Source of the DNA: a virus
Direction: 5' to 3' (one strand)
Length of the DNA stretch: 64,000 nucleotides
UHGV virus genome: UHGV-0015805
The notes under the pieces are model-generated. The model saw only the letters and a list, made by a program, of their open reading frames with translations. It had not been told where the DNA came from and ran no database searches. Made by a program: the position numbers and the translations under genes. Below are positions 2,006-62,957 of this stretch, in pieces. How positions within the stretch are numbered: the first letter of the stretch is position 1; each line of letters begins with the position of its first letter.

Positions 2006-5000
2006 ATGCTCAAAAACTATTGTGTCTATCATTTACATACAGAGCAATCTTTGCTTGACAGCTGCACAAACTATAAGCTGTATGTAGACAAGGCCAAAAA
2101 GCTTGGTCGGACAGCGATTTGCTTTACTGAACATGGCAATCTGTACTCATGGGTAGAGAAAAAGATGTATTGCGATGAACAAGGCATTAAGTATCTGCAC
2201 GGTGTTGAGTGCTATCTCACCAAGTCGCTTTACGAATATCCTGATGTGCCTGACGAATGGTACGAAGAACATCTTGGCATGGATGAAAAGGACGTGCAAG
2301 CAGAACTTAATGAGATGCTTGAAAACAACAAACGCAAAGTGCGTGACAATTACCATACCATCCTTATTGCAAAAAATTATGATGGTGTAATGGAACTTAA
2401 TAGGCTGTGCTCACTGTCTACACAGCCCGACCATTTCTATTACAAGCCACGATTGACATTTAACGAGTTTTTAGCTATCAGCCCCAATGTTATCAAAATT
2501 TCTGCCTGCCTTGCATCCCCATTAAATAAGATGCGCAAGGGCGAAACCGATATTGACGAGCGGTTGTTACGAGCATATGATTATTATGAAATTCAGCCGC
2601 ACATTAACAGTGAAGAGCAGAAAGAATATAATCTATGGCTTGTTAAGATGTCCAAGAAATATGGCAAGCCACTGATTGCTGGAACGGACACACATAGCTT
2701 GAATCAATATAAGGCTGAATGCCGAACCATTCTTCAGCTTGCAAAGAAGATTGAATTTTCTAATGAGGACGAATTCGACCTAACATATAAAAGTTATGAC
2801 GAACTTGTTGATATGTTTGCCAAACAGGGAGTACTTGACGAGCAGACATACATTGAAGCCATCAATAACACAAATGTTATGGCAGACAGCGTTGAGCCGT
2901 TTGAGCTTGATGCTGCGTTAAAATATCCTATTCTTTATGGAGAACAGGACGAAGCAATGCTCTGGAAGGTACTTGGTGATAAGCTTGTAGATAAAGAAAA
3001 ACGCGGCGTAATCGACCGCAAGGATCGTCAAGCATATGTTGATCGCATCAAAGAAGAAATGCGTGTTCTTAAAAAAATCGGCATGACTGGCTTTATGCTG
3101 TTTATGTCCGAGATGATTTCTTGGTGTTGGGAAAATAACATTCCAGTTGGATTTTGCCGCGGCTCTGTTGGCGGGTCGATGGTGGCGTATATCAGCGATA
3201 TAATTGATGTAAATCCATTTACTTGGCATACAATGTTTGCGCGCTTTGCTAATGAACACCGTACTGAAGTGGGTGACATCGATGTAGATATAAGTCCAGA
3301 CCAACGGTACCTTGTATATGATTATATCATTAACCGCTTCGGAAAAGAAAAGACTGCATATATTCTTGCAAGCGGGACAGTTAATGACAAGGGTTGTATT
3401 GACGAGATAGGACGCGCGTTGGCTTATCGTGATGAAAATTCGCCATATACGCTTGCGAAAATAAAAGAGATTAAACAGGAATATGCCGCAGACTCCGATA
3501 AAGCAAGGCGCGATTATCCTGATTTATTCTATTACTTTGACGGACTAAACGGAACGGTTGTGTCACAGTCCATGCATCCTGCAGGAATTGTAGCAAGTCC
3601 GATTAATCTAATTGATAACTATGGCTGTTTTATCAACAATGAGGGCAAGCAGGTCATGTATATCAACATGGAAGAAGTTCACGAGACGGGGCTTGTTAAG
3701 TATGATATTTTGGGGCTGCGCAATGTTCAAATCATTCGTGATACATGCGCATTAGCCGGAATACCATATCCAAAATCTCATGAAATCAATTGGAATGATA
3801 ATGCTGTGTGGAAAGATATGGTAAAATCGCCCGTTGGGATATTCCAGTTCGAGTCCGATTTTGCCTTCAAGAGCTTGCAAAAAATGTCCCCACATAGTAT
3901 TAACGACATGTCATTAACAAATGCTGCTCTAAGACCGTCTGGCGAAAGTTATCGTGAGCGGTTGTTTAACAAAGAAGTTAATCATAATCCGTCCGAACAA
4001 ATTGATGAACTATTGGCAGATAACTATGGCTATCTTGTATTTCAGGAAGATGTCATTAAATTTCTACAAGACATATGTGGGTTAAGCGGGTCTGATGCAG
4101 ACAATGTGCGCCGGGCTATTGGGCGCAAGCAAGTTGACCGCCTGCAAAAGGCATTGCCACAAATTTTTGAGGGGTATTGCAATAAGTCTGAAAGGCCTCG
4201 CAATATTGCAGAACAAGAAGCTAAAACATTCCTACAAATTATTGAAGATAGCAGCAATTATATGTTTGGTTATAACCATAGTACGGGTTATTCAATGATT
4301 GGATATACATGTGCATATTTACGCTATCATTATCCAATCGAGTTCTGTACGGCATTGCTCAACAATGCAAATAATGATGATGATTTAACAAATGGAACGG
4401 CGCTTATTAAGCAGCTTGGCATTAAATTAAGACCGCCTTTGTTTCGTCATTCTCGGTCAACATATTTTTGCAACAAAGATGATAACACAATCTATCAAGG
4501 ATTAGATTCAATCAAACATATGTCGTCGGATGTTGCAGAAAGCCTGTATCTTCTGCGAGATAAGCAGTTCAAAAATTTCATTGATTTTTTGTTTTGTATG
4601 CAATACCTGCCAGTCAAGCCCGATAGCCGACAGCTTGATATATTGATTAAAATCGGCTATTTTTCCGAGTTTGGCAAAGCAAGGGCGTTGCTCGAGGGCG
4701 TGCGCGTATTCAATCTTTTTTATAAATCTAAGACAATAAGGCTTGACAAATGGATTGAGATGTGCTATAATATAGACGTGTTAAGGCAACACGCCGAAAA
4801 AATGACCGATAAGACGGCAAGCGGCATTGACAACTATGCTTTAATTCTTGCAATTCTTAAGCAAGAAAGTATGCCTAAGACGACCATTGTGGACATGCTG
4901 AGATGGCAAGCTGAATTTTTAGGTTATGTTGACGGTCATGATTCAAAGCGAGACATAAATGACTGGCTTGTGCTTGACAGTAAAACCACTAATTACGGTA

Positions 5001-5215
5001 TTGCGTGGTTAAGGTTATACAACCTACAACATGGAGTTGAGCGTCAATATAAGTGCAATAAAAAATGGTGGGCAACACATCAATGCAAATCGGGCGATAT
5101 AATCAAAGCCGTGCTTGACAATGTGCCTAAATGGACGAAAAATTCTGATGGCAAATTTATTAAGACGAACGAGACAGAAGTGCAAGTTAAATGTTTTAAG
5201 GTATTGGAGGAATGA
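2006..5215 (+). CDS. dnaE: DNA polymerase III alpha subunit (DnaE-like, N-terminal PHP domain)
   Basis: YHLHTEQSLLDS PHP motif; GFCRGSVGGSMVAYISDIIDVNPF matches the PolIII alpha palm motif GxGRGSAAGSLVAY; about 1070 aa; RBS AAGGAGGTG. Confidence 0.85.
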   Translation: MLKNYCVYHLHTEQSLLDSCTNYKLYVDKAKKLGRTAICFTEHGNLYSWVEKKMYCDEQGIKYLHGVECYLTKSLYEYPDVPDEWYEEHLGMDEKDVQAELNEMLENNKRKVRDNYHTILIAKNYDGVMELNRLCSLSTQPDHFYYKPRLTFNEFLAISPNVIKISACLASPLNKMRKGETDIDERLLRAYDYYEIQPHINSEEQKEYNLWLVKMSKKYGKPLIAGTDTHSLNQYKAECRTILQLAKKIEFSNEDEFDLTYKSYDELVDMFAKQGVLDEQTYIEAINNTNVMADSVEPFELDAALKYPILYGEQDEAMLWKVLGDKLVDKEKRGVIDRKDRQAYVDRIKEEMRVLKKIGMTGFMLFMSEMISWCWENNIPVGFCRGSVGGSMVAYISDIIDVNPFTWHTMFARFANEHRTEVGDIDVDISPDQRYLVYDYIINRFGKEKTAYILASGTVNDKGCIDEIGRALAYRDENSPYTLAKIKEIKQEYAADSDKARRDYPDLFYYFDGLNGTVVSQSMHPAGIVASPINLIDNYGCFINNEGKQVMYINMEEVHETGLVKYDILGLRNVQIIRDTCALAGIPYPKSHEINWNDNAVWKDMVKSPVGIFQFESDFAFKSLQKMSPHSINDMSLTNAALRPSGESYRERLFNKEVNHNPSEQIDELLADNYGYLVFQEDVIKFLQDICGLSGSDADNVRRAIGRKQVDRLQKALPQIFEGYCNKSERPRNIAEQEAKTFLQIIEDSSNYMFGYNHSTGYSMIGYTCAYLRYHYPIEFCTALLNNANNDDDLTNGTALIKQLGIKLRPPLFRHSRSTYFCNKDDNTIYQGLDSIKHMSSDVAESLYLLRDKQFKNFIDFLFCMQYLPVKPDSRQLDILIKIGYFSEFGKARALLEGVRVFNLFYKSKTIRLDKWIEMCYNIDVLRQHAEKMTDKTASGIDNYALILAILKQESMPKTTIVDMLRWQAEFLGYVDGHDSKRDINDWLVLDSKTTNYGIAWLRLYNLQHGVERQYKCNKKWWATHQCKSGDIIKAVLDNVPKWTKNSDGKFIKTNETEVQVKCFKVLEE
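4743..4771 (+). promoter_or_regulatory. consensus promoter-like element inside the dnaE coding sequence
   Basis: ttgacaaatggattgagatgtgctataat, same architecture as the intergenic promoters. Confidence 0.3.
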
Positions 5216-5383
5216 AAGAATATATTTGTGTAGCAATGCGTGGTAGACCGATTGAAAATCCGTCGTTACGAGTTGCTGGGCTTCCAACTAAGCAGCGCCT
5301 TGAGCCAAATTTTGATTGTGTCAACACACTGTCAACAGTATGCAAAGACAATATGATATTGGAGATTGTCCAAGATGAGTAAA
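5211..5383 (+). CDS. small hypothetical protein (57 aa), translationally coupled to dnaE
   Basis: ATGA overlap with the dnaE stop; GGAGG RBS just upstream. Confidence 0.25.
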
Positions 5384-5528
5384 ATTATGCATCTTGTCTA
5401 TGATGATTATAACGGCAACCTATATGGGCACATAGACTATATTGGTACTATCACGGCACATGGCTGTGGATGCAAGGCGATGCGCAACGGAATAAAAATA
5501 ATCGAAGTAATAATGGAGGATGATGACA

Positions 5529-6335
5529 ATGAGCAAACCGTATGAACTTGTTAATTTTTGCGAAATTGATAAATTCGCAACTAAGTCATATTGTGCGGTG
5601 CATGATGTAGACCCGAGCAAGAATCTTGGCGATATTACCAAGGTGGATGAGAACGAATTGCCTGAGTTTAATTGCATCTTTGGTGGTTCGCCTTGTCAAG
5701 ATTTTAGCGTTGCCGGTAAAGGTGCTGGCTCTATGTGGAAATGCCATGAATGTGGGCATGAGTACAACCCTATTACTATGCACTGGTCTAAGCGGCATAT
5801 CTGTCCTGAATGTGGTAGCGACCAGCTTGATAAGACGCGCTCATCTTTGCTTGTTGAATGGCTGCGTGTAATTCGAGCCAACAAGCCAAAGTGGGGTATT
5901 TATGAAAACGTGAAGAATATCACAGGCAAAAAGCATCGAGCCACATTCGACTTATTCGTTAAGGAACTCGAAGAATATGGCTACAATGTATATTGGAAAG
6001 TGCTTAATGCCAAAAATTATGGAGTCCCGCAAAATCGCAACCGCGTGTATGTTGTCATTGTACTGAAAGAGTTGGACAACGGCAAGTTTGAGTTCCCCAA
6101 GCCGTTCGATAATGGCGTTCGATTAAAAGATGTGCTTGAAGATGCGGTCGATGAAAAATATTATGTCGAAACCGATGCCTCCCAGGAGTTAATCGATGAA
6201 CTTGTCGAAAGTGGTAGACTCGACAAGGTAGCAAGCAATACGGTTCGTACAGGGGGGCGCAACGGCCCGATAGGCGACAGACACAATTGGGATGCTGTTG
6301 CAGTTAGGGCGAACGAGGCACATCAAAATCGATAG
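5529..6335 (+). CDS. DNA (cytosine-5) methyltransferase, part 1: motifs II-VIII plus N-terminal half of the target-recognition domain, with a zinc-ribbon insert; motif I absent here
   Basis: EIDKFA, GGSPCQDFSVAGKG (motif IV PCQ), ENVKN (VI) and QNRNRVYVV (VIII). CHECG...CPECG inserted between IV and VI. Ends at an in-frame TAG (6333-6335). Confidence 0.75.
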   Translation: MSKPYELVNFCEIDKFATKSYCAVHDVDPSKNLGDITKVDENELPEFNCIFGGSPCQDFSVAGKGAGSMWKCHECGHEYNPITMHWSKRHICPECGSDQLDKTRSSLLVEWLRVIRANKPKWGIYENVKNITGKKHRATFDLFVKELEEYGYNVYWKVLNAKNYGVPQNRNRVYVVIVLKELDNGKFEFPKPFDNGVRLKDVLEDAVDEKYYVETDASQELIDELVESGRLDKVASNTVRTGGRNGPIGDRHNWDAVAVRANEAHQNR

Positions 6336-6383
6336 ACTTTACGACATGTTGTTTCACAAAATCACGCAGGAGGATTAAAGAGA

Positions 6384-6704
6384 GTGGACATTGACACGCA
6401 AAACAAAAAATATCGCCTTAGACGGCTAACAGAAAAAGAATGCTGGCGTTTGATGGATTTTACAGATGAGCAGTTTGATAAAGCAAAGGATGCAGGACTG
6501 TCTGATACGCAGCTCTACAAGCAGGCTGGCAACAGCATTGTTGTTGGAGTGCTTGAGCAAATTATGGGCAATTTGTATGATGCTATGCCGTATTTGTTTG
6601 ATGATTTGAAAGTGGGCAGCTATTTTAGCGGCATTGGAGCGTTTGAAAGTGCGTTGGACAGAGTATATGAAAAGAAACGAAAAAAAAGGGGGGGGGGGGA
6701 CTAA
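6384..6704 (+). CDS. DNA (cytosine-5) methyltransferase, part 2: motifs IX-X followed by a C-terminal motif I (circular permutation)
   Basis: RRLTEKECWRLMDF (IX) and QAGNSIVVGVLEQI (X), then LKVGSYFSGIGAFESAL, which is a motif I FxGxG SAM loop. GTG start with AGGAGG RBS. Same reading frame as part 1. Confidence 0.7.
   Translation: MDIDTQNKKYRLRRLTEKECWRLMDFTDEQFDKAKDAGLSDTQLYKQAGNSIVVGVLEQIMGNLYDAMPYLFDDLKVGSYFSGIGAFESALDRVYEKKRKKRGGGD
6680..6699. repeat. A8 G12 homopolymer tract at the 3' end of the methyltransferase
   Basis: cgaaaaaaaagggggggggggg read directly at 6680-6699. Confidence 0.9.
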
Positions 6705-6707
6705 CCA

Positions 6708-6938
6708 ATGAAACATTGTTATGGCTTTTGTGCGTCTGAATGTATATTAGGACAATGCCCACAAGCATTGGCACAATCATGTGATTGGTATACAGATATG
6801 GGATTTGATGTTCCAAAATCATGCAGGGATTGTTGGTACAATACAGGGCAATGTGAGGACTGTGTGTTTATAGGCAGCGAACAATGTGAATATCCGAACA
6901 AAGAAAAGAAAATCGTGATTAAGGAGGTCAAAGAATAA
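6708..6938 (+). CDS. small Cys-rich protein
   Basis: 14 Cys in 76 aa. Confidence 0.4.
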   Translation: MKHCYGFCASECILGQCPQALAQSCDWYTDMGFDVPKSCRDCWYNTGQCEDCVFIGSEQCEYPNKEKKIVIKEVKE

Positions 6939-7219
6939 TGCAAGAAATAAAGCCCTGCCCTTTCTGTGGAAATCCAAAGGTTAAGCTTGTAAAGAACGCC
7001 AGCTTTTATACATTTTCATATGGTGACAAATATATAGAGCGTGTTAAATATTCTGTGCGATGCGGAGTGTGCTATGCAAGAGGTGGACTTGCAAGCGGGC
7101 TTGTTGGGGATTATGGCAATTGCGAAAATGATGTTCCAGCGCCATATCGAAATAAAATTGCCACTGACGAAGAGCTGCAGGCAAAAGCAATTGAATTGTG
7201 GAATGAGAGGATTGAATAA
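6938..7219 (+). CDS. Lar-family restriction-alleviation-like zinc-finger protein
   Basis: MQEIKPCPFCG...VRCGVCYARG matches the Lar-family CPFCG/CxxC pattern; strong RBS AAGGAGG. Confidence 0.5.
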   Translation: MQEIKPCPFCGNPKVKLVKNASFYTFSYGDKYIERVKYSVRCGVCYARGGLASGLVGDYGNCENDVPAPYRNKIATDEELQAKAIELWNERIE

Positions 7220-7620
7220 TGGATGCTGTTAAATTTCTCGAAGAAAAAGACAGGATGTGCAGATTTTATGAAACATGTTCGAAATGCCCTTGTTTTTACA
7301 AGTCCGGCATCGCTGTGAATTGCATACTTGCTAATGGGTTGTCTTTAGCAAAAAACAAAGAACAAGTCGCCATTGTTGAAAAATGGTCTGCCGAACATCC
7401 TCGTAAAACAAGACAAAGTGTATTTTTGGAGCAGTACCCCGAGGCAAAAGTAGATAAGAGCACCGGCGTGCTTGTTCTTTGCCCCGCAGCGTTAAAGAAA
7501 GAATACAGAGATGATAGAGGTGCTTGTAATGCATACTGCATCGAAAGTAATGCATACTGCATCGAAAGCGGCATTTGCGCTGATTGCCGCCGCAAGTTTT
7601 GGATGCAGGAGGTAGAATGA
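7219..7620 (+). CDS. Cys-rich hypothetical protein containing an in-frame tandem duplication
   Basis: NAYCIES NAYCIES, encoded by a 21-bp tandem repeat. Confidence 0.45.
   Translation: MDAVKFLEEKDRMCRFYETCSKCPCFYKSGIAVNCILANGLSLAKNKEQVAIVEKWSAEHPRKTRQSVFLEQYPEAKVDKSTGVLVLCPAALKKEYRDDRGACNAYCIESNAYCIESGICADCRRKFWMQEVE
7527..7568 (+). repeat. 21-bp perfect tandem duplication (2 copies)
   Basis: taatgcatactgcatcgaaag x2. Confidence 0.8.
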
Positions 7621-7763
7621 TGAAGCTAACTATTATCTTCAAAGATGAGTTTGAGGAACATATGAAAAGGCAATTTGGGTCTTTCACGAATCCGCAGGTA
7701 TATAACGTGAAGTCTATACGCATTGAACGTGGGTATCTATACTCTACTACGGTTTGTTAGTAT
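7617..7763 (+). CDS. small hypothetical protein (48 aa)
   Basis: ATGA overlap with the upstream gene; AGGAGG 5 nt upstream. Confidence 0.25.
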
Positions 7764-7810
7764 ATGGATGATATTGCCAGAGTTTACTGTGAGTGAGAGG
7801 AGGGCTAATA

Positions 7811-8125
7811 ATGGCTGAATATATTGATAAAAATGCGTTGTTTAAAGACCTTAACGATAAATATGAATGCAAAGACACTGAATGCTGGGATGTTAGTTAT
7901 ACTTTTGGCTTTGAGAGTGCCATAGGTGTAGTAAGCAAAGCATCACCACTTAATGTTGCAATTGTTAAACATGGACAGTGGATTGAGGACCACGAGTATC
8001 TCAAATGCTCAGAGTGCGGCGTGATGGTTATGGATGCGTTTTTTGATGATATTGAGGATTGGAATTACTGTCCCAACTGTGGAGCAAAAATGGAGGACGG
8101 AGCAGCAGACAACGAGACTGATTAA
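7811..8125 (+). CDS. zinc-ribbon hypothetical protein
   Basis: CxxC...CPNCG; RBS GAGAGGAGG. Confidence 0.45.
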   Translation: MAEYIDKNALFKDLNDKYECKDTECWDVSYTFGFESAIGVVSKASPLNVAIVKHGQWIEDHEYLKCSECGVMVMDAFFDDIEDWNYCPNCGAKMEDGAADNETD

Positions 8126-11128: not shown

Positions 11129-11563
11129 ATGAAAACCGAAGTAATGTTTTCCTCTGCCACAGATGAATGGGCAACGCCACAGAACTTGTTTGACGAATTA
11201 GACAAAGAGTTCCGCTTTGAACTTGATGTGTGTGCAAACGAAAGCAACCACAAGTGTGACAAGTATTACACCAAAGAGCAAGACGGGCTGCTAATGCCAT
11301 GGATTGCCGATGGTGCGATATGGTGTAATCCGCCTTATGGTAGGGAGATAGGCAATTGGGTAAACAGAGCGTGGCACGCATCCGCTGATGCAACGGTTGT
11401 AATGTTCTTACCCGCACGGACTGATACCAAGTGGTTTCATGACTATATCTACAAGAAACCAAATGTTGAAATTCGATTCATCAAAGGTCGCCTTAAATTT
11501 GGAGACAGTAAGAATTCTGCGCCGTTTCCGTCTATGATTGTGGTCTTTAGACCGTTTAACTAA
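11129..11563 (+). CDS. phage N6-adenine DNA methyltransferase (phage Dam family)
   Basis: DEWATPQNLF...LDVCA...WCNPPYG (NPPY catalytic motif), typical of the phage N-6-adenine-methyltransferase family. Confidence 0.75.
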   Translation: MKTEVMFSSATDEWATPQNLFDELDKEFRFELDVCANESNHKCDKYYTKEQDGLLMPWIADGAIWCNPPYGREIGNWVNRAWHASADATVVMFLPARTDTKWFHDYIYKKPNVEIRFIKGRLKFGDSKNSAPFPSMIVVFRPFN

Positions 11564-53595: not shown

Positions 53596-55257
53596 TTAAT
53601 AATTTTCTTTGATTCTGTCCCATACATTCATGGTAGACATATCTTTCTTTTGAATTTCAATCGGTTTAGAGAAAGCGAAGATTTTATCTGCGTCTTTCTT
53701 TGCCGCCTTTTTGAACGCATTAAAGCACTGTGCCTTAACCTTATTACCAAAAGCATCAATCTCGTCCTTGCCACAAGCAAGTCCCTCGGCACGCAGTTCC
53801 TGATATTTGTCGGCATCAAGATAATCCTTGACTTCATCCAAAATATCTTCAACGCGCTTAGCAATCTCTTTTTCTTCAATCGCCGCCTTGTATGCTTTCA
53901 GTTCGTCAAGCTCTTTTCTCAACTCGTCGATTTCGGCATCTTTCTGCATAATAATTGCGTCTTTTTCGTCGGGCTCATCTTCAGACTTGCCCTCTTCACC
54001 CATGAGATGTTTGAACTCTTCAGGGCAAGAGAACCGCTTAATATCATCGGTTTCGACAAACTCAATGTCAACTTTGACCATTTCATCGTCCATGAACAGC
54101 CCATCTTCCGTATAGCTAAAATTGATACGGAATCTGTCGCCGTCATCATTTCTGACAATCACAAACTTTTTATTATCCTGTTCAAAAATGCCGTCAATGT
54201 ACCAACGCCAATCATAATTTCTTGCACGAAGCTCATCATTGATTTTCGTCCACATAAGATTGAGGTCAACAGCCGCAAATGCAACTTCTTTGCTCATTTT
54301 TTCATCGTCCTCCTTTCCCTCTTCGTTCAAATCTAATTCATCATAGATTTCTTTTAATTTATTCAAAACCTCCTGCTCGTCATTCTGTTTAGCATAAGCC
54401 AAAGCAGAAGCAAGAGCACGAGTTGAATAACGCCATTCGCCGTCGAACAGCCCCATTACGGGGTAGCCAAGCTTAGTCACCTCTCTGTCCTCCCAGCCTT
54501 CCTCAAGATTGAGACAGACCTTTGGTGCGAGAGATTTATAATTCTTCTCTTTAATCAAATCTTGCTTGGCCTTGTTTCCATCCCACTCACCAGTATAAAC
54601 GGCGTCTTTAGAAGTGTTGATGGGATGAGATACATATTTCTTTTCAGCCATAGATTGTTTCCTCGTTTCAACAAATTTGGTTAGATTAGATACGGCATTT
54701 GTAGCACTGGCAAAATAAGCATCAGCCTCTTCTGCTGTGAACCGCACCATCTGTATATCTGCATCAGGACATGAACCGTTCACCTTTTTCCCAAGACAAG
54801 TTAGTCCAAAGATATCAAATGCTATAACCTCATGTTCGTCATCATCTTCTGTGTCAACTGTCATTTCCACAGAACTATTACGCAAATTGTCAAATTCAAA
54901 AATATCGTTAAAATCTTTTCCATATTTTTTACTGACAACCGAATAAGCATATGCCTTGGTCACACCTGCATCTTCAACAAACTCAATGTCTTGTTCTATA
55001 GGAAAATAGCCATATATAATTTCATCGTATTCATGACTCATTGCATCGCCAAATCGCACCTTAGCCACAAGGAAATTGCCAAGAATGGTGCCAGCATATT
55101 CCCGCAATACATCATCGTTAATGTTCAGCTCGTGTGCGTTTGGTTTGGTGCTAAGAAAGCAACACTTATACACGGCGAATTTATGCTCTGGATAGGCATC
55201 TGTCCAATGAGGAATTTCTACGGCGTCCTCCATTTGAAACCTTACATTTTTTCTCAA
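53596..55257 (-). CDS. head morphogenesis protein (protease/scaffold-like, C-terminal coiled coil)
   Basis: 553 aa; acidic coiled-coil C-terminal half; position after the portal. Confidence 0.35.
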   Translation of the reverse strand: MRKNVRFQMEDAVEIPHWTDAYPEHKFAVYKCCFLSTKPNAHELNINDDVLREYAGTILGNFLVAKVRFGDAMSHEYDEIIYGYFPIEQDIEFVEDAGVTKAYAYSVVSKKYGKDFNDIFEFDNLRNSSVEMTVDTEDDDEHEVIAFDIFGLTCLGKKVNGSCPDADIQMVRFTAEEADAYFASATNAVSNLTKFVETRKQSMAEKKYVSHPINTSKDAVYTGEWDGNKAKQDLIKEKNYKSLAPKVCLNLEEGWEDREVTKLGYPVMGLFDGEWRYSTRALASALAYAKQNDEQEVLNKLKEIYDELDLNEEGKEDDEKMSKEVAFAAVDLNLMWTKINDELRARNYDWRWYIDGIFEQDNKKFVIVRNDDGDRFRINFSYTEDGLFMDDEMVKVDIEFVETDDIKRFSCPEEFKHLMGEEGKSEDEPDEKDAIIMQKDAEIDELRKELDELKAYKAAIEEKEIAKRVEDILDEVKDYLDADKYQELRAEGLACGKDEIDAFGNKVKAQCFNAFKKAAKKDADKIFAFSKPIEIQKKDMSTMNVWDRIKENY

Positions 55258-59967: not shown

Positions 59968-61185
59968 TTTTTTAAACTATTTTTTTTGAGGTTAATTATA
60001 TATATTGCCAGTGAAATCCATATGCGATCCGTTGTTGCCCGCGACAACACTTGGAAATTGAGGACGGGTCCTTGTTCAAGGCACGACCCGCCTCAGCCAC
60101 GGATTCATAAGTAACTCCCGTTTCGACACACATCAGCTTCTTCCCACCAATGTTAAGATGTGCAATCCGCGATTGATCTCGCATCTCCTCTGTCCAAATT
60201 CGATTTTTATTATATCTTCTAAGATGCTCTTTTACGCTTTCTGGACATTTGTGCCCTACTCCGTTCCTCTTACCTTTCATCCTCTCCGACCTACGACGGC
60301 ATATTTCTTCCGAAAGCTTCCATGTTTTGCCTTTTACATTTTGGTTGCCCATTATACTTTGGCTTATTTTATTTCTTGTTTCTTCGGAATGTTTTTTGCC
60401 GAACATGTGATTATCTTTCCCGCATTTTATTTGTTCCGGGTGTTCTTTAAAACGTTTTTTAGCTATTTCGCTCATTCTCTTCTTGTCTTCTTCTCTGTGA
60501 CGATATCCTTTTGTGCTTTCTGCTATCGGACATATATTGTATCCGACATCTCTGTCGGCACTATCATAAAAATCTATCCAATACTGCTCGCGTTGTGTTA
60601 AATTTTCGTGCGATACGCCTCTTTCCAACACTTCAACACTAAAGTTATCAAATCCATACTTTTTAATAGCCATGCAGATACGCCTATTTGTATCTTCGCG
60701 TAAGTATTGTTTCATACGAGTATAAAAATCCACCGTCTGCCCGACATAAACCTTCCCGTTTATTAGGTTTCGCCATAAATAAATGCAACTAAAAGAAAAT
60801 TTCTTTTTATCATTAACCTCAAAAATATTCATGCTATAAAATCCTTCCTGCAATAAAGATTATTATTCAAGAACAAATGGGGTAATTTGTTCGTTTGCAG
60901 ACGAACAAAAACAATTTGCAACTTGCTGTCCCCCATTGTTCTTTTAAGCACAGGTCGCTACTCCTCGTTTCTCTCGTTTTTTTGAGAGACTGCATGTTTC
61001 CATGCAGATAAGACTATATCTTCACTTTGCTTTTATGCAAAGGCATACCACTTCCACAACCAATCGCTTGTTGTGTACTCCCTTACGGGATAGTCGTTGA
61101 ACGTTCCTCTATTCAAAGCTTCGCTGCTGATTGCCCAATTTTTATCATTTTCTCGCATATCACACTTAGCCTTATTTCATGCTTA
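59968..61185 (-). mobile_element. group I intron with GIY-YIG endonuclease ORF splitting the terminase large subunit gene
   Basis: Minus-sense AATCAGCAGCGAAGC (Q-like) and GTTCAACGACTATCCCGTAAGGGAGTAC (R element plus GNRA hairpin). ATPase and nuclease domains lie in separate ORFs on either side. Boundaries approximate. Confidence 0.6.
59996..60832 (-). CDS. GIY-YIG homing endonuclease (I-TevI-like, NUMOD repeats)
   Basis: IYLWRNLINGKVYVGQT..F..R...Y GIY-YIG motif; repeated H..E.R.KIS motifs; C-terminal DNA-binding module. Confidence 0.8.
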   Translation of the reverse strand: MNIFEVNDKKKFSFSCIYLWRNLINGKVYVGQTVDFYTRMKQYLREDTNRRICMAIKKYGFDNFSVEVLERGVSHENLTQREQYWIDFYDSADRDVGYNICPIAESTKGYRHREEDKKRMSEIAKKRFKEHPEQIKCGKDNHMFGKKHSEETRNKISQSIMGNQNVKGKTWKLSEEICRRRSERMKGKRNGVGHKCPESVKEHLRRYNKNRIWTEEMRDQSRIAHLNIGGKKLMCVETGVTYESVAEAGRALNKDPSSISKCCRGQQRIAYGFHWQYI

Positions 61186-62067
61186 TGTTGTAGCTGATAA
61201 AACTCTAAGGGTGTTCCAGCAATTCAATATGTTTAATGCGAACCTTTTCAAATCCGCTTTGGACATTTTCTTCTTTGCCTTTCGGTAGTCCGCCCATGTT
61301 CGGCTTCCTTCTTGAATTGCAGTATAAATGTCCTCTGCCATAGGAATGTACTTCTCGTGCTTTGATGTATAATAGCCCTCAACGCATTTTCTGTATTCTC
61401 TGATAAACCATTCCCACTCATACCGAGTAGATGAAATATAGCAAGATTTTGCTGCCTTTATCCACCTATCTGTTTTATACTTAGGGTCAAGTGTAAATGG
61501 CGCAGGACGCTCATGCCCCATTGGCTCAAATACTGAGTCAAGAATTGCTTTCTTCAGCAATCGCGTCTCTTCATATATCGTAAATGTAGAACGCATACCA
61601 CGGGCGTTTTCAGAACACACAGCGACCGTTGTCGTTGATTCATTTAATGTGTTCGTTAAGACGAAAACACCCTCATCAAGCATTTTAACTGTCAAATAGC
61701 CCTTCTCATACAAATACTTCAAATATGGCGAATATTTCTTAATGATTTCTTTTATCATCTTATCTCTTACAAGTCTTGCGGACTGCGGGATAGAAGATGA
61801 TGTAACAACAATTTCTGAATGCGGATATAAACTCATTGCACAAAATGCAGCAACGCCAACAATAAAAGACTTCGCCGTTGAACGAGACGAAAAATCCCAA
61901 TATTCGTCGGCAACGCCGATCATGTGCAATTTCAGCTTCTGCACAGGATATAGCTTAATACCAAGGACCTCTTCAGCAAATAAGTCCCAATTCCTGCGAT
62001 AATAAGTTATCCACTTTTTGACATTTTCGGACTTGCGGAATTGTTCGTTTTCTCTTGCGGTCGGCAT
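61183..62067 (-). CDS. terL: terminase large subunit, 5' exon (ATPase domain)
   Basis: LYPVQKLKLHMI and SSRSTAKSF (Walker A-like), typical of the TerL N-terminus; last residues probably intron-encoded. Confidence 0.65.
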   Translation of the reverse strand: MPTARENEQFRKSENVKKWITYYRRNWDLFAEEVLGIKLYPVQKLKLHMIGVADEYWDFSSRSTAKSFIVGVAAFCAMSLYPHSEIVVTSSSIPQSARLVRDKMIKEIIKKYSPYLKYLYEKGYLTVKMLDEGVFVLTNTLNESTTTVAVCSENARGMRSTFTIYEETRLLKKAILDSVFEPMGHERPAPFTLDPKYKTDRWIKAAKSCYISSTRYEWEWFIREYRKCVEGYYTSKHEKYIPMAEDIYTAIQEGSRTWADYRKAKKKMSKADLKRFALNILNCWNTLRVLSATT

Positions 62068-62957
62068 TACAACTGCTCCTTAGGAATATTGGGGTAGTTC
62101 TTCGTCCCCGCAATCATATTCTGCATTGACCGCATCCAATCATTATATATTTTCTCATAGCCCTTAACATCCTTATACCGCTCCTCATCCGTCAATTCAG
62201 CAGGCTCAGTATTCTCAAATTTCCATGCCAAGTGGTCTATGTATCTATCTTCGTCCGATTTTGTATTGTCTCTGAAATCATCTATGCGCAACAATTTCAT
62301 CCATTTCAGGATTTCATCAGTTGTAGATTTTGTTTCTTCGCCCGCTTCGCTTTCTTTCTTAAAGCGCAAATTGCATTTGCATAAAGACCTATATGCCTTT
62401 TCCGCCGAAACAGATATGGCTTCGAGGTCGCGCGTGTAGTCCAAATATTCTCTTTCAAGCCAATCCCAATCATCGGCTGTATAATCGCCCCAACGCGCTC
62501 TATACTTGTTTGCGTCTGCGAGATGGCGGTCAATATCCTTAACTTCGCCACCAACGCCCGTCTTTATCATGTCGGACAACATGGCATCTGATTGCCAAAA
62601 GCCCTCATATACGCGATTTAAGTTAGCAAGCGAAATCAAGTAGAATGTGATTAAATCACCCGTTTTGTCGTTTTCATACATTTCAGATGCAGCATACCAC
62701 GCCTCCAAAATGAACGGAACGCCCATCTGCGCCAAAACAAGCCACAGTGCCGCCATCGGCTTTTCTACCTTATCTGTGTAGTCTTTAAGTAATCTTTTGC
62801 CACACCTGCGGCACACAAAAAATTGCATGTTGGGAACGGATGTCGTTGAGTAAAAATCGCTTATTGGCTTTCTTGACCCACAGGCAACGCACAGCCGCAC
62901 ATTCCTGCTATCCGCCCTAATGCTTTTGGTCGGAGCTTTCTTTTTTGCTGTCGGCAC
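62067..62957 (-). CDS. putative terminase small subunit (N-terminal zinc ribbon)
   Basis: Sits directly upstream of terL with a TAATG overlap; CVACG...CRRCG. Confidence 0.35.
   Translation of the reverse strand: MPTAKKKAPTKSIRADSRNVRLCVACGSRKPISDFYSTTSVPNMQFFVCRRCGKRLLKDYTDKVEKPMAALWLVLAQMGVPFILEAWYAASEMYENDKTGDLITFYLISLANLNRVYEGFWQSDAMLSDMIKTGVGGEVKDIDRHLADANKYRARWGDYTADDWDWLEREYLDYTRDLEAISVSAEKAYRSLCKCNLRFKKESEAGEETKSTTDEILKWMKLLRIDDFRDNTKSDEDRYIDHLAWKFENTEPAELTDEERYKDVKGYEKIYNDWMRSMQNMIAGTKNYPNIPKEQL

Follow-up and report, generated by a model that had tools for sequence, protein, structure and literature searches.

The multispecific C5-cytosine DNA methyltransferases (MTases) of the Bacillus phages SPR, phi3T, rho11s, H2 and SPbeta are single polypeptides in which the conserved motifs run in the canonical order from I to X; they carry target recognition domains (TRDs) in tandem, are phage-borne and have no restriction gene adjoining them. 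Here we analyse a relative of these enzymes in a 64 kb stretch of the virus genome UHGV-0015805 (hereafter the window, to which coordinates refer unless a contig is named). In this locus, the MTase is encoded in two open reading frames (ORFs), part 1 and part 2, which are separated by an in-frame TAG, and motif I, the S-adenosylmethionine (SAM) loop, lies at the C-terminus of part 2. Identity to the five Bacillus phage enzymes is 31–32% in part 1, 59–61% in motifs IX–X and 57–65% in motif I, with blastp E-values against the SPR/phi3T/rho11s group of 6e-46 for part 1 and 6e-20 for part 2, and the same TRD types recur, for example 'KQGNRVYDS...GG...SLY' and 'IKRVYS..G.SPTL.TM..G..EPK'. Unlike the locus in the window, the Bacillus phage MTases have no zinc ribbon, and the accessible portions of their descriptions do not mention G runs, free-standing TRD ORFs or TRDs outside the VIII–IX region. 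The phage collection that was searched held no close cultured relatives, and DNA matches in it were confined to the SPbeta-group MTases (71–73% over 170–177 nucleotides (nt)) and two shorter matches to other phage MTases. The chemistry is ordinary and the enzyme is kin to the multispecific phage MTases; it differs from them in topology, subunits, zinc ribbon and TRD placement, and is not a new kind of system. As a whole, the locus would encode an orphan anti-restriction C5 MTase of an SPbeta-like gut phage, derived from the multispecific MTases of Bacillus phages (SPR, phi3T, rho11s and H2). We assign a probability of roughly 0.7 to this explanation, in which the enzyme is permuted, split and formed by two polypeptides, and TRDs are switched by G runs in its relatives.

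C5 MTases are regarded as the most uniform of the DNA MTases, and the accessible literature records one natural bacterial permutation so far, cut in the variable region. In the available text of a scan of 20,677 REBASE entries, this variable-region permutation is the only one (PMC5944983), and a 2025 classification recognizes two 5-methylcytosine (m5C) topologies, C and F (10.1101/2023.12.13.571470). In the permuted enzymes M.BssHII, M.Alw26I, M2.Eco31I, M.Esp3I and M2.BsaI (type H, zeta or topology F), the accessible parts of both sources place motif X before motif I in one chain, as in our locus, and the native termini close together (PMC5944983; 10.1101/2023.12.13.571470). The new termini of the M.BssHII type lie in the variable region (IX–X–I...VIII), whereas the cut described here falls between motifs I and II. 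According to the available text on engineered enzymes, M.MpeI and M.SssI permutants are active in ten topologies and their fragment pairs complement each other, and permutants of M.MpeI, M.SssI and M.HaeIII tolerate N-termini near motifs II–III; these are laboratory constructs, however, and the same text describes a II/III cut (class B) and no natural I/II cut (PMC5944983). M.AquI (alpha and beta) is reported, in the portions available, as two polypeptides split in the variable region, the second of which carries IX–X, as part 2 does (PMC5944983). Its motif order is nevertheless canonical, with motif I in the first subunit and no extra TRD ORFs. Plant DRM C5 methyltransferases have a rearranged order as well, with VI–X before I–V, but they are eukaryotic, have another cut site and come from an unrelated context. 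The original prediction, made from the letters of the window alone, did not recognize II...X–I among the described C5 MTase arrangements, and the accessible literature agrees (PMC5944983; 10.1101/2023.12.13.571470). Our literature search returned no description of this topology or of phage-MTase TRDs switched by G runs; it left most subscription journals uncovered, and absence from it is no proof.

Motif order and the C-terminal motif I

Part 1 has no motif I at its N-terminus and opens straight at 'YELVNFCEID' (motif II). It starts at the ATG at 5529, with GGAGG 9 nt upstream; a second in-frame ATG lies at 5520, which gives a length of 268–271 amino acids (aa). All elements of the originally predicted layout, namely the motif order, the zinc-ribbon insert, the TAG, the AGGAGG–GTG signal and the A8G12 tract, are present at the positions that had been claimed for them, and the locus reads as follows.

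5212–5382 (+): ORF a, 56 aa; a TRD module that stands alone, its start codon overlapping the stop of the gene for DNA polymerase III alpha (ATGA)
5375–5545 (+): ORF b, 56 aa; a second TRD module that stands alone, sharing 8 nt with ORF a and 17 nt with part 1
5529–6335 (+): part 1, 268 aa, with motifs II–VIII, a zinc-ribbon insert and one TRD
5547–5579 (+): motif II, in part 1
5682–5720 (+): motif IV (GGSPCQ), in part 1
5742–5813 (+): CxxC-x17-CxxC zinc-ribbon insert, between motif IV and the TRSSL helix
5895–5918 (+): motif VI (ENV; YENV), in part 1
6021–6056 (+): motif VIII (QNRNR), in part 1
6234–6293 (+): the short TRD of part 1, 'SNTVRTGGRNGPIGDRHNWD'
6252–6257 (+): G6 run, coding for the Gly-Gly of 'RTGGR' in the TRD of part 1
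6333–6335 (+): TAG stop of part 1, in frame with part 2
6368–6373 (+): AGGAGG, the Shine–Dalgarno sequence for part 2, 10 nt before the GTG at 6384
6384–6704 (+): part 2, 106 aa, GTG start, with motifs IX and X, a linker, motif I and a basic Gly-rich tail
6411–6461 (+): motif IX, in part 2
6513–6554 (+): motif X, in part 2
6570–6605 (+): 12-aa linker between motifs X and I, in part 2
6606–6665 (+): strand, loop and helix of motif I, 'LKVGSYFSGIGAFESALDRV', in part 2
6680–6699 (+): A8G12 homopolymer pair, encoding the tail of part 2, EKKRKKRGGGD

The identity of the C-terminal piece was established by profile and pairwise alignments. Part 1 matches Pfam family PF00145 with an E-value of 1.2e-46 and 160.1 bits, and part 2 matches it with 40.2 bits (cut-off 22 in both cases) over profile positions 270–322 only, that is, IX–X. 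Residues 9–64 of part 2 are 61% identical to residues 438–493 of the rho11s MTase and residues 75–94 are 65% identical to its residues 4–23 ('LRVMSLFSGIGAFEAALRNI'), and the alignment of part 1 begins at rho11s residue 27; as aligned, the cut-and-paste relative to rho11s is exact, between residues 23 and 27. When the C-terminal piece is put first, phmmer aligns 'YFSGIGAFESALDRV..YELVNFCEIDKFA...SPCQDFS' colinearly to residues 17–92 of M.HhaI (motifs I, II and IV), and the Pfam score rises from 200.3 to 214.9 bits (+14.6). FSGIGAFE had been proposed as motif I, and the alignments to M.HhaI and rho11s together with this gain in score uphold that assignment; the profile check gave no contradiction. 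All catalytic and cofactor motifs are intact (FSGIG, CEID, SPCQ, YENV, QNRNR, RRLTEKECWRLMDF and GNSIV) and align to M.HhaI, but they do not follow the canonical I-to-X order in one polypeptide.

The permuted order recurs throughout a large family of relatives. The 120 listed homologues of part 1 are all 234–415 aa long, and the best 11, which were inspected, all begin at motif II, with the start 'MSKPYELVNFCEID'; among 854 scored homologues of part 2, all 15 that were inspected end in '...FSGIGAFESALDRVYEKK'. Every one of the 58 loci with both parts that were fetched from IMG/VR has motif II first and motif I last, 27 as one ORF and 31 split. Uninterrupted II-to-I ORFs include those of L038 (521 aa) and L027 (397 aa, without the zinc ribbon). 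Single-chain proteins of 390–620 aa are numerous, with NCBI entries from Coprococcus, Mediterraneibacter gnavus and Coprobacillus that are labelled only 'DNA (cytosine-5-)-methyltransferase', some of them on contigs of up to 1.8 Mb, that is, in prophages. A filter-free phmmer search with part 2 against 1.84 billion cluster representatives gave 7266 matches; the best 150, each from another 50% cluster, nearly all matched through motif I, and the IX–X–I end is common to more than 100 clusters at 50% identity. On the evidence of these sequences, the II...X–I order is a real protein topology and a family trait, not a local accident, and the layout is common to thousands of uncultured phages. The proposed circular permutation with a C-terminal SAM loop, in the order II–VIII, TRD, stop, IX, X, I, thus holds in the window and is conserved in a large family, and we are highly confident that this is a genuine permuted C5 MTase family with motif I last.

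Structure prediction is consistent with this order. The AlphaFold model of the single-chain relative P0455, which had the more diverse alignment, reached a mean predicted local distance difference test score (pLDDT) of 80.6 and a predicted template modelling score (pTM) of 0.80, with M.HhaI, M.MpeI and M.HaeIII as its closest structures. Its C-terminal strand (residues 377–382) and helix (388–395) have pLDDT values of 94–96. As this strand is the only one otherwise missing from the sheet, we infer that it takes the beta-1 slot. In this lineage, the first strand–loop–helix of the Rossmann fold (motif I, FxGxG) would have been cut from the N-terminus and rejoined, through a linker of about 12 residues, to the motif X helix, its neighbour in the folded enzyme, giving the order II–VIII, TRD(s), IX, X, I. 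A second natural topology, with many examples among gut phages and the prophages of Lachnospiraceae and their kin, implies that in nature the fold tolerates a cut beside the SAM loop, and that thousands of enzymes are overlooked or wrongly described by annotation pipelines and by classifications based on motif order.

The zinc-ribbon insert of part 1 matches the Zn_ribbon_8 model at E 1.2e-5, which is under that model's cut-off, and occupies the position of the catalytic loop of M.HhaI. Its four Cys residues are invariant in 30 single-chain relatives; the ribbon is missing from the rho11s and H2 MTases, where it corresponds to an alignment gap of 32 residues, and also from L027 and P0490.

Other insertions occur in the family. 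An intein (Pfam Hint_2 and Intein_splicing) lies exactly within motif IV, between 'GGSPC' and 'QDFS', in P0004, P0012, P0017, P0268, P0427 and L096 (2501–3748); the MTase gene of the window has no intein in motif IV. In P0444 (629 aa), motif I and the usual C-terminal tail are separated by an in-frame insert of about 210 residues with 'HNGY' and 'VDHINRN', which by eye looks like an HNH/AP2-type homing endonuclease. A SAM synthetase gene adjoins the permuted MTase locus in L007 (1905–2945) and L095 (4219–5271), and L007 carries a second PF00145 gene at 760–1518.

The split, the TAG and competing explanations

Parts 1 and 2 share one frame, with a single TAG between them and an AGGAGG–GTG signal belonging to part 2, just as the original prediction had it, and the gap from TAG to GTG is 48 nt. 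The enzyme is divided in the variable region into two ORFs, the second with its own initiation signal, as in M.AquI. The Shine–Dalgarno sequence and the start of part 2 are conserved, and short and long forms of part 2 both occur in relatives. AGGAGG lies in sequence that codes for the 'AGGL' of a TRD in relatives (...NAGGLMQV..., with an ATG directly after), and relatives have homologous coding sequence for the 16 codons between TAG and GTG ('VSQNHAGGLKR' in P0126). The two parts of related loci stand in any pair of frames, usually different ones, and the stop of part 1 is TAA, TGA or TAG. These other frames and stops, together with the lack of a suppressor transfer RNA (tRNA) in the sequence covered below, indicate that the TAG is an ordinary stop and that the enzyme consists of two polypeptides. 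Of the two options that had been offered for this layout, a two-subunit enzyme is therefore supported, by the separate start of part 2 and by the frames and stops of the relatives, and nonsense suppression is not.

Selection acts on all pieces of the gene. Compared with relatives of saturating synonymous divergence (proportion of synonymous differences, pS, 0.4–0.65), the ratio of nonsynonymous to synonymous substitution (dN/dS) is 0.10–0.16 in ORF a (against L095 and L004), 0.05–0.07 in ORF b, 0.02–0.05 in part 1 and 0.02–0.12 in part 2, showing that all four ORFs are under purifying selection. By analogy with M.AquI, parts 1 and 2 would assemble non-covalently, with part 2 supplying the SAM loop, the motif X helix and motif IX, and the version in the window is likely to be an active two-polypeptide enzyme. 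Naturally split, permuted enzymes would be useful starting points for split-methyltransferase tools.

Several other explanations of the locus have to be weighed against a permuted, two-polypeptide MTase. Sequencing or assembly errors could have produced the TAG, the split or the G12 from a gene that in reality has the canonical I–X order: poly-G is a known Illumina artefact, and the Hadza assembly NODE_293 (84,550 nt) stops at window position 6777, 78 nt past A8G12, a break that may be due to difficulties with coverage or assembly at the tract, or to a circular genome having been opened at an arbitrary point. However, contigs from other samples (L001, Logan ERR7745414; L002, ENA Hadza) are 100% identical to the window over 3.4–5.6 kb, TAG included, and the sole difference in L003 (ERZ27286945) is A9G14 instead of A8G12. 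This base-for-base agreement of independent assemblies argues that the features of the locus are not assembly errors; moreover, the split point is not at a homopolymer and the permuted order is proven by single-chain relatives, leaving an artefact a negligible probability. It is also conceivable that FSGIGAFE remains from the 5′ end of another, truncated MTase gene that was fused by chance, and is no working part of this enzyme: such a fusion would be an intermediate if circular permutation came about through duplication and deletion, and the ORF ends almost directly after motif I. We consider this very unlikely, because the piece and its 'AMPYLFDDLK' linker are conserved in the 15 homologues inspected of 854 and in more than 100 clusters at 50% identity, no member of the permuted family examined has an N-terminal motif I, the C-terminal piece is modelled with high confidence and part 2 is under purifying selection. 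Finally, a decaying pseudogene, in which a nonsense mutation, deletions and the rearrangement of TRD fragments disrupted a once-intact MTase and left it inactive, would account for a gene in four pieces, a TRD array far shorter than those of relatives, a mere stub in the frame after G6 and the homopolymer tail. Yet the catalytic motifs are all intact, dN/dS is 0.02–0.16 in each piece at saturating synonymous divergence, the start signals and the overlapping, coupled ORFs have been kept, and the identical layout recurs across many contigs and samples, so that decay is improbable.

The TAG and the homopolymer tract have alternatives of their own. If the TAG were read through, by suppression or recoding, parts 1 and 2 would form one 391-aa chain; the two ORFs are in frame, the codons between TAG and GTG resemble coding sequence of relatives, and TAG ends only 1 of the 64 ORFs of at least 100 aa in the window (TAA 40, TGA 23), that one being part 1. 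Read-through is nonetheless a poor prospect in view of the parts of relatives, mostly in different frames with TAA, TGA or TAG ends, and of the conserved Shine–Dalgarno sequence and start of part 2. There are no tRNA genes in the 64 kb window, of the 20.6 kb of the genome outside the window, about 18 kb hold only tRNA-Ile(TAT) and tRNA-Phe(GAA) and no suppressor tRNA, and no other gene in the window is interrupted by an in-frame TAG; recoding of the TAG was rejected on the absence of tRNA genes from the window and of any other TAG-split gene. As to A8G12, the original prediction had described it as prone to slippage and had placed it at the end of the MTase gene. Slippage is borne out by a homopolymer length that differs between closely related genomes (A8G12 here, A9G14 in L003), but the link to MTase function is weaker than implied, since tract length alters only the last residues: whatever the length of G12, the MTase ends within 13 codons with only its short tail changed, and no frame exists that leads through A8G12 into further TRDs. 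The tract might instead be a ribosome-binding or regulatory stretch of the downstream Cys-rich gene (6708–6938), with slippage incidental, an alternative that is compatible with a permuted, split MTase and that we rate somewhat below an even chance. The end of the tract and the ATG (6708) of that gene are 8 nt apart; compared with L004, the tract stands in for about 125 nt of intergenic sequence that include the stop region and, at the same distance, the AAGGAG preceding that gene; the MTase is not extended at any tract length; and the single observed variant keeps the frame (+3 nt). On the other side, L032 and L036 have a G run in the linker directly after motif I that leads into more TRD modules, so the position of A8G12 may be inherited from the MTase locus, and a G run bears little resemblance to a canonical Shine–Dalgarno sequence. 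On the explanation favoured here, the tract still slips, with an effect on the tail alone, and probably provides the next gene with its ribosome-binding stretch.

The tRNA genes outside the window lie at 3538–3611 and 4191–4277 of contig L099, which also carries an integrase gene at 6315–7151.

TRD modules and G runs

ORFs a and b have no match in Pfam, so their assignment as TRDs rests on homology to modules inside longer MTases. Neither these two ORFs nor the switching of TRDs by G tracts across the family figured in the original prediction. Modules of the ORF a type ('CVAMRGRP...QRLEP...NTLSTV.KDN') sit between VIII and IX in P0402 and in the MTase of Dulem virus 39, and after motif I in P0401 and P0427; in the phage collection, ORF a matches only two lemur-gut viruses. 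Modules of the ORF b type ('VYDDYN...IGTIT...NGIKIIEV') follow the first TRD in P0035; in L032 and L036 they come after motif I, to which they are fused in frame. The last residues of ORF b form the 'MEDDDNEQ' linker, normally found ahead of motif IX; this ORF is also called as a gene in identical contigs and has no tblastn match in the phage collection. The low dN/dS of both ORFs, in the range of the catalytic core, argues that they are not debris.

Across the family, TRDs are found in the VIII–IX region, after motif I and before motif II, in the last case either fused (P0109) or as separate ORFs, and the order of a- and b-type modules is shuffled between the close relatives L095 and L096. 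The positions after motif I and before motif II are one point in the folded protein. The window lacks a tandem series of TRDs within the VIII–IX region of a single chain: part 1 contains one TRD, and two more are encoded by separate upstream ORFs. Single-chain relatives do have tandem arrays. TRDs that are free or attached at a terminus may conceivably be functional specificity modules, although we hold this to be doubtful. Only tentatively, too, can the family be read as a modular, combinatorial specificity system, in which TRDs would act from non-canonical attachment points or as free 56-aa subunits, in an HsdS-like manner, and would combine with slippery G runs to yield many specificities at once. 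If that reading were true, the population would carry many methylation specificities as a hedge against host restriction systems, and the permutation, by putting both chain ends at the I/II junction, would be what opened the extra TRD attachment site. The TRD findings make it testable how one catalytic core uses many interchangeable TRDs.

G-run contingency loci are known from mod and hsdS phasevarions, from receptor-binding genes of Campylobacter Fletchervirus and from T2/T4 (10.1101/2025.10.21.683753; PMC4889913), and polyG has been noted in the methylase gene of Bordetella phage BPP-1 (10.1101/2025.10.21.683753). In the window, only two runs of at least G6 occur on the plus strand in 64 kb, and both are in the MTase locus. 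Over 58 loci, 100 runs of at least G6 were counted in 178 kb of MTase locus versus 13 in 484 kb of flanks, and all in-locus runs except one (L063) come from the split clade. The runs sit at Gly-Gly sites of TRD modules. The single-chain clade codes the same sites by GGT, GGA and GGC, with GGG in 3 of 133 codons and no run, and in the window outside the MTase locus GGGGGG encodes 1 of 77 Gly-Gly pairs. The lengths of the runs, which are assembly consensus, vary among relatives: the contigs of one phage (L004, L005 and L006) differ solely by G11/G12 and G8/G9, and seven related genomes (L013–L020) have four homologous tracts with lengths from G5 to G9. Between related loci, length differences affect 13 of 38 G runs versus 0 of 109 A/T runs of at least 6, in pairs that are not independent.

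The lengths have orderly effects on the reading frame. At the tract homologous to the window G6, in L013–L022, G7 leads into a '...RGSLDRHQWD' TRD, G5 into an overlapping TRD ('...ANTLLARDYKGFGNQ') and G6 to a stop, and both products exist as database proteins (P0001 versus P0005 and P0007); at the three other tracts of these loci, the module is complete at G7 only. The homologous tract of L004 is G10, with two alternative TRDs in two frames, and the G6 of the window is in the ON frame, its alternative frame being a 29-codon stub. As far as sequence can tell, the pattern in relatives is that of contingency loci, in which, likewise, coding sequence contains G runs that differ in length from isolate to isolate and thereby change the frame; known contingency loci turn a whole gene on or off or act on a receptor-binding protein, whereas the tracts in these relatives lie inside single TRDs and one of them chooses between two overlapping TRDs. 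In close relatives, slippage at Gly-Gly G runs would set which TRDs are in frame; mixed methylation specificities in phage populations, directed against host restriction systems, would follow from switching within a population, and most such tracts would have been lost in this genome. Whether relatives use G-run slippage to vary their TRD content is, in our estimate, evenly balanced. The pattern suggests a possible way for phages to vary protective methylation, with a bearing on host range and on arms races between gut phages and restriction systems.

Several points weigh against the explanation as a whole. The first AlphaFold model, of the 521-aa relative P0242, was built on a shallow alignment and reached a pLDDT of 51, with the motif I segment below 50, and the placement of the C-terminal strand in the beta-1 slot of the P0455 model comes from the confidence score and not from a measurement. 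TRDs that stand after motif I, before motif II or free would each need a route to the DNA-recognition position. In the window, neither G tract switches a TRD at any length, so that phase variation would be a property of relatives and not of this genome. In split loci, 57 of 183 frame changes defined by homology fall at a run of at least G5, and slippage is therefore not the sole cause of array fragmentation; G tracts as the only cause of the frame changes are unsupported. Differences in G-run length between assemblies could also be, in part, Illumina or assembly error.

Phage context and neighbouring genes

The phage is tailed and SPbeta-like, has a genome of about 84.6 kb and comes from human gut samples; its genes include those for a tape measure protein, Sak4, a DnaB-like helicase and an exonuclease V/Dda-like helicase. 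The MTase lies in an early, tightly packed operon, and no restriction enzyme adjoins it. Downstream follows a string of small Cys-rich ORFs with many CxxC pairs (6708–8125), within which 6938–7219 matches a Lar-like restriction alleviation protein (phrog_599, PF14354). About 4.4 kb beyond the MTase, a 144-aa ORF (11129–11563) has a Dam-family (PF05869) match in an identical contig, so that the early region holds at least two methyltransferases and Lar. This context fits an orphan, protective anti-restriction role of the MTase.

In the remainder of the window, weak Pfam matches to YonD_N and YonG_N in an identical contig correspond to 53596–55257 (–) and 62067–62957 (–). They suggest an SPbeta-like structural module, in agreement with the SPbeta-group ancestry of the MTase. 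Between them, at 59996–60853 (–), lies an ORF whose product in an identical contig (L101, 12126–12962) is homing-endonuclease-like, with GIY-YIG and NUMOD3.

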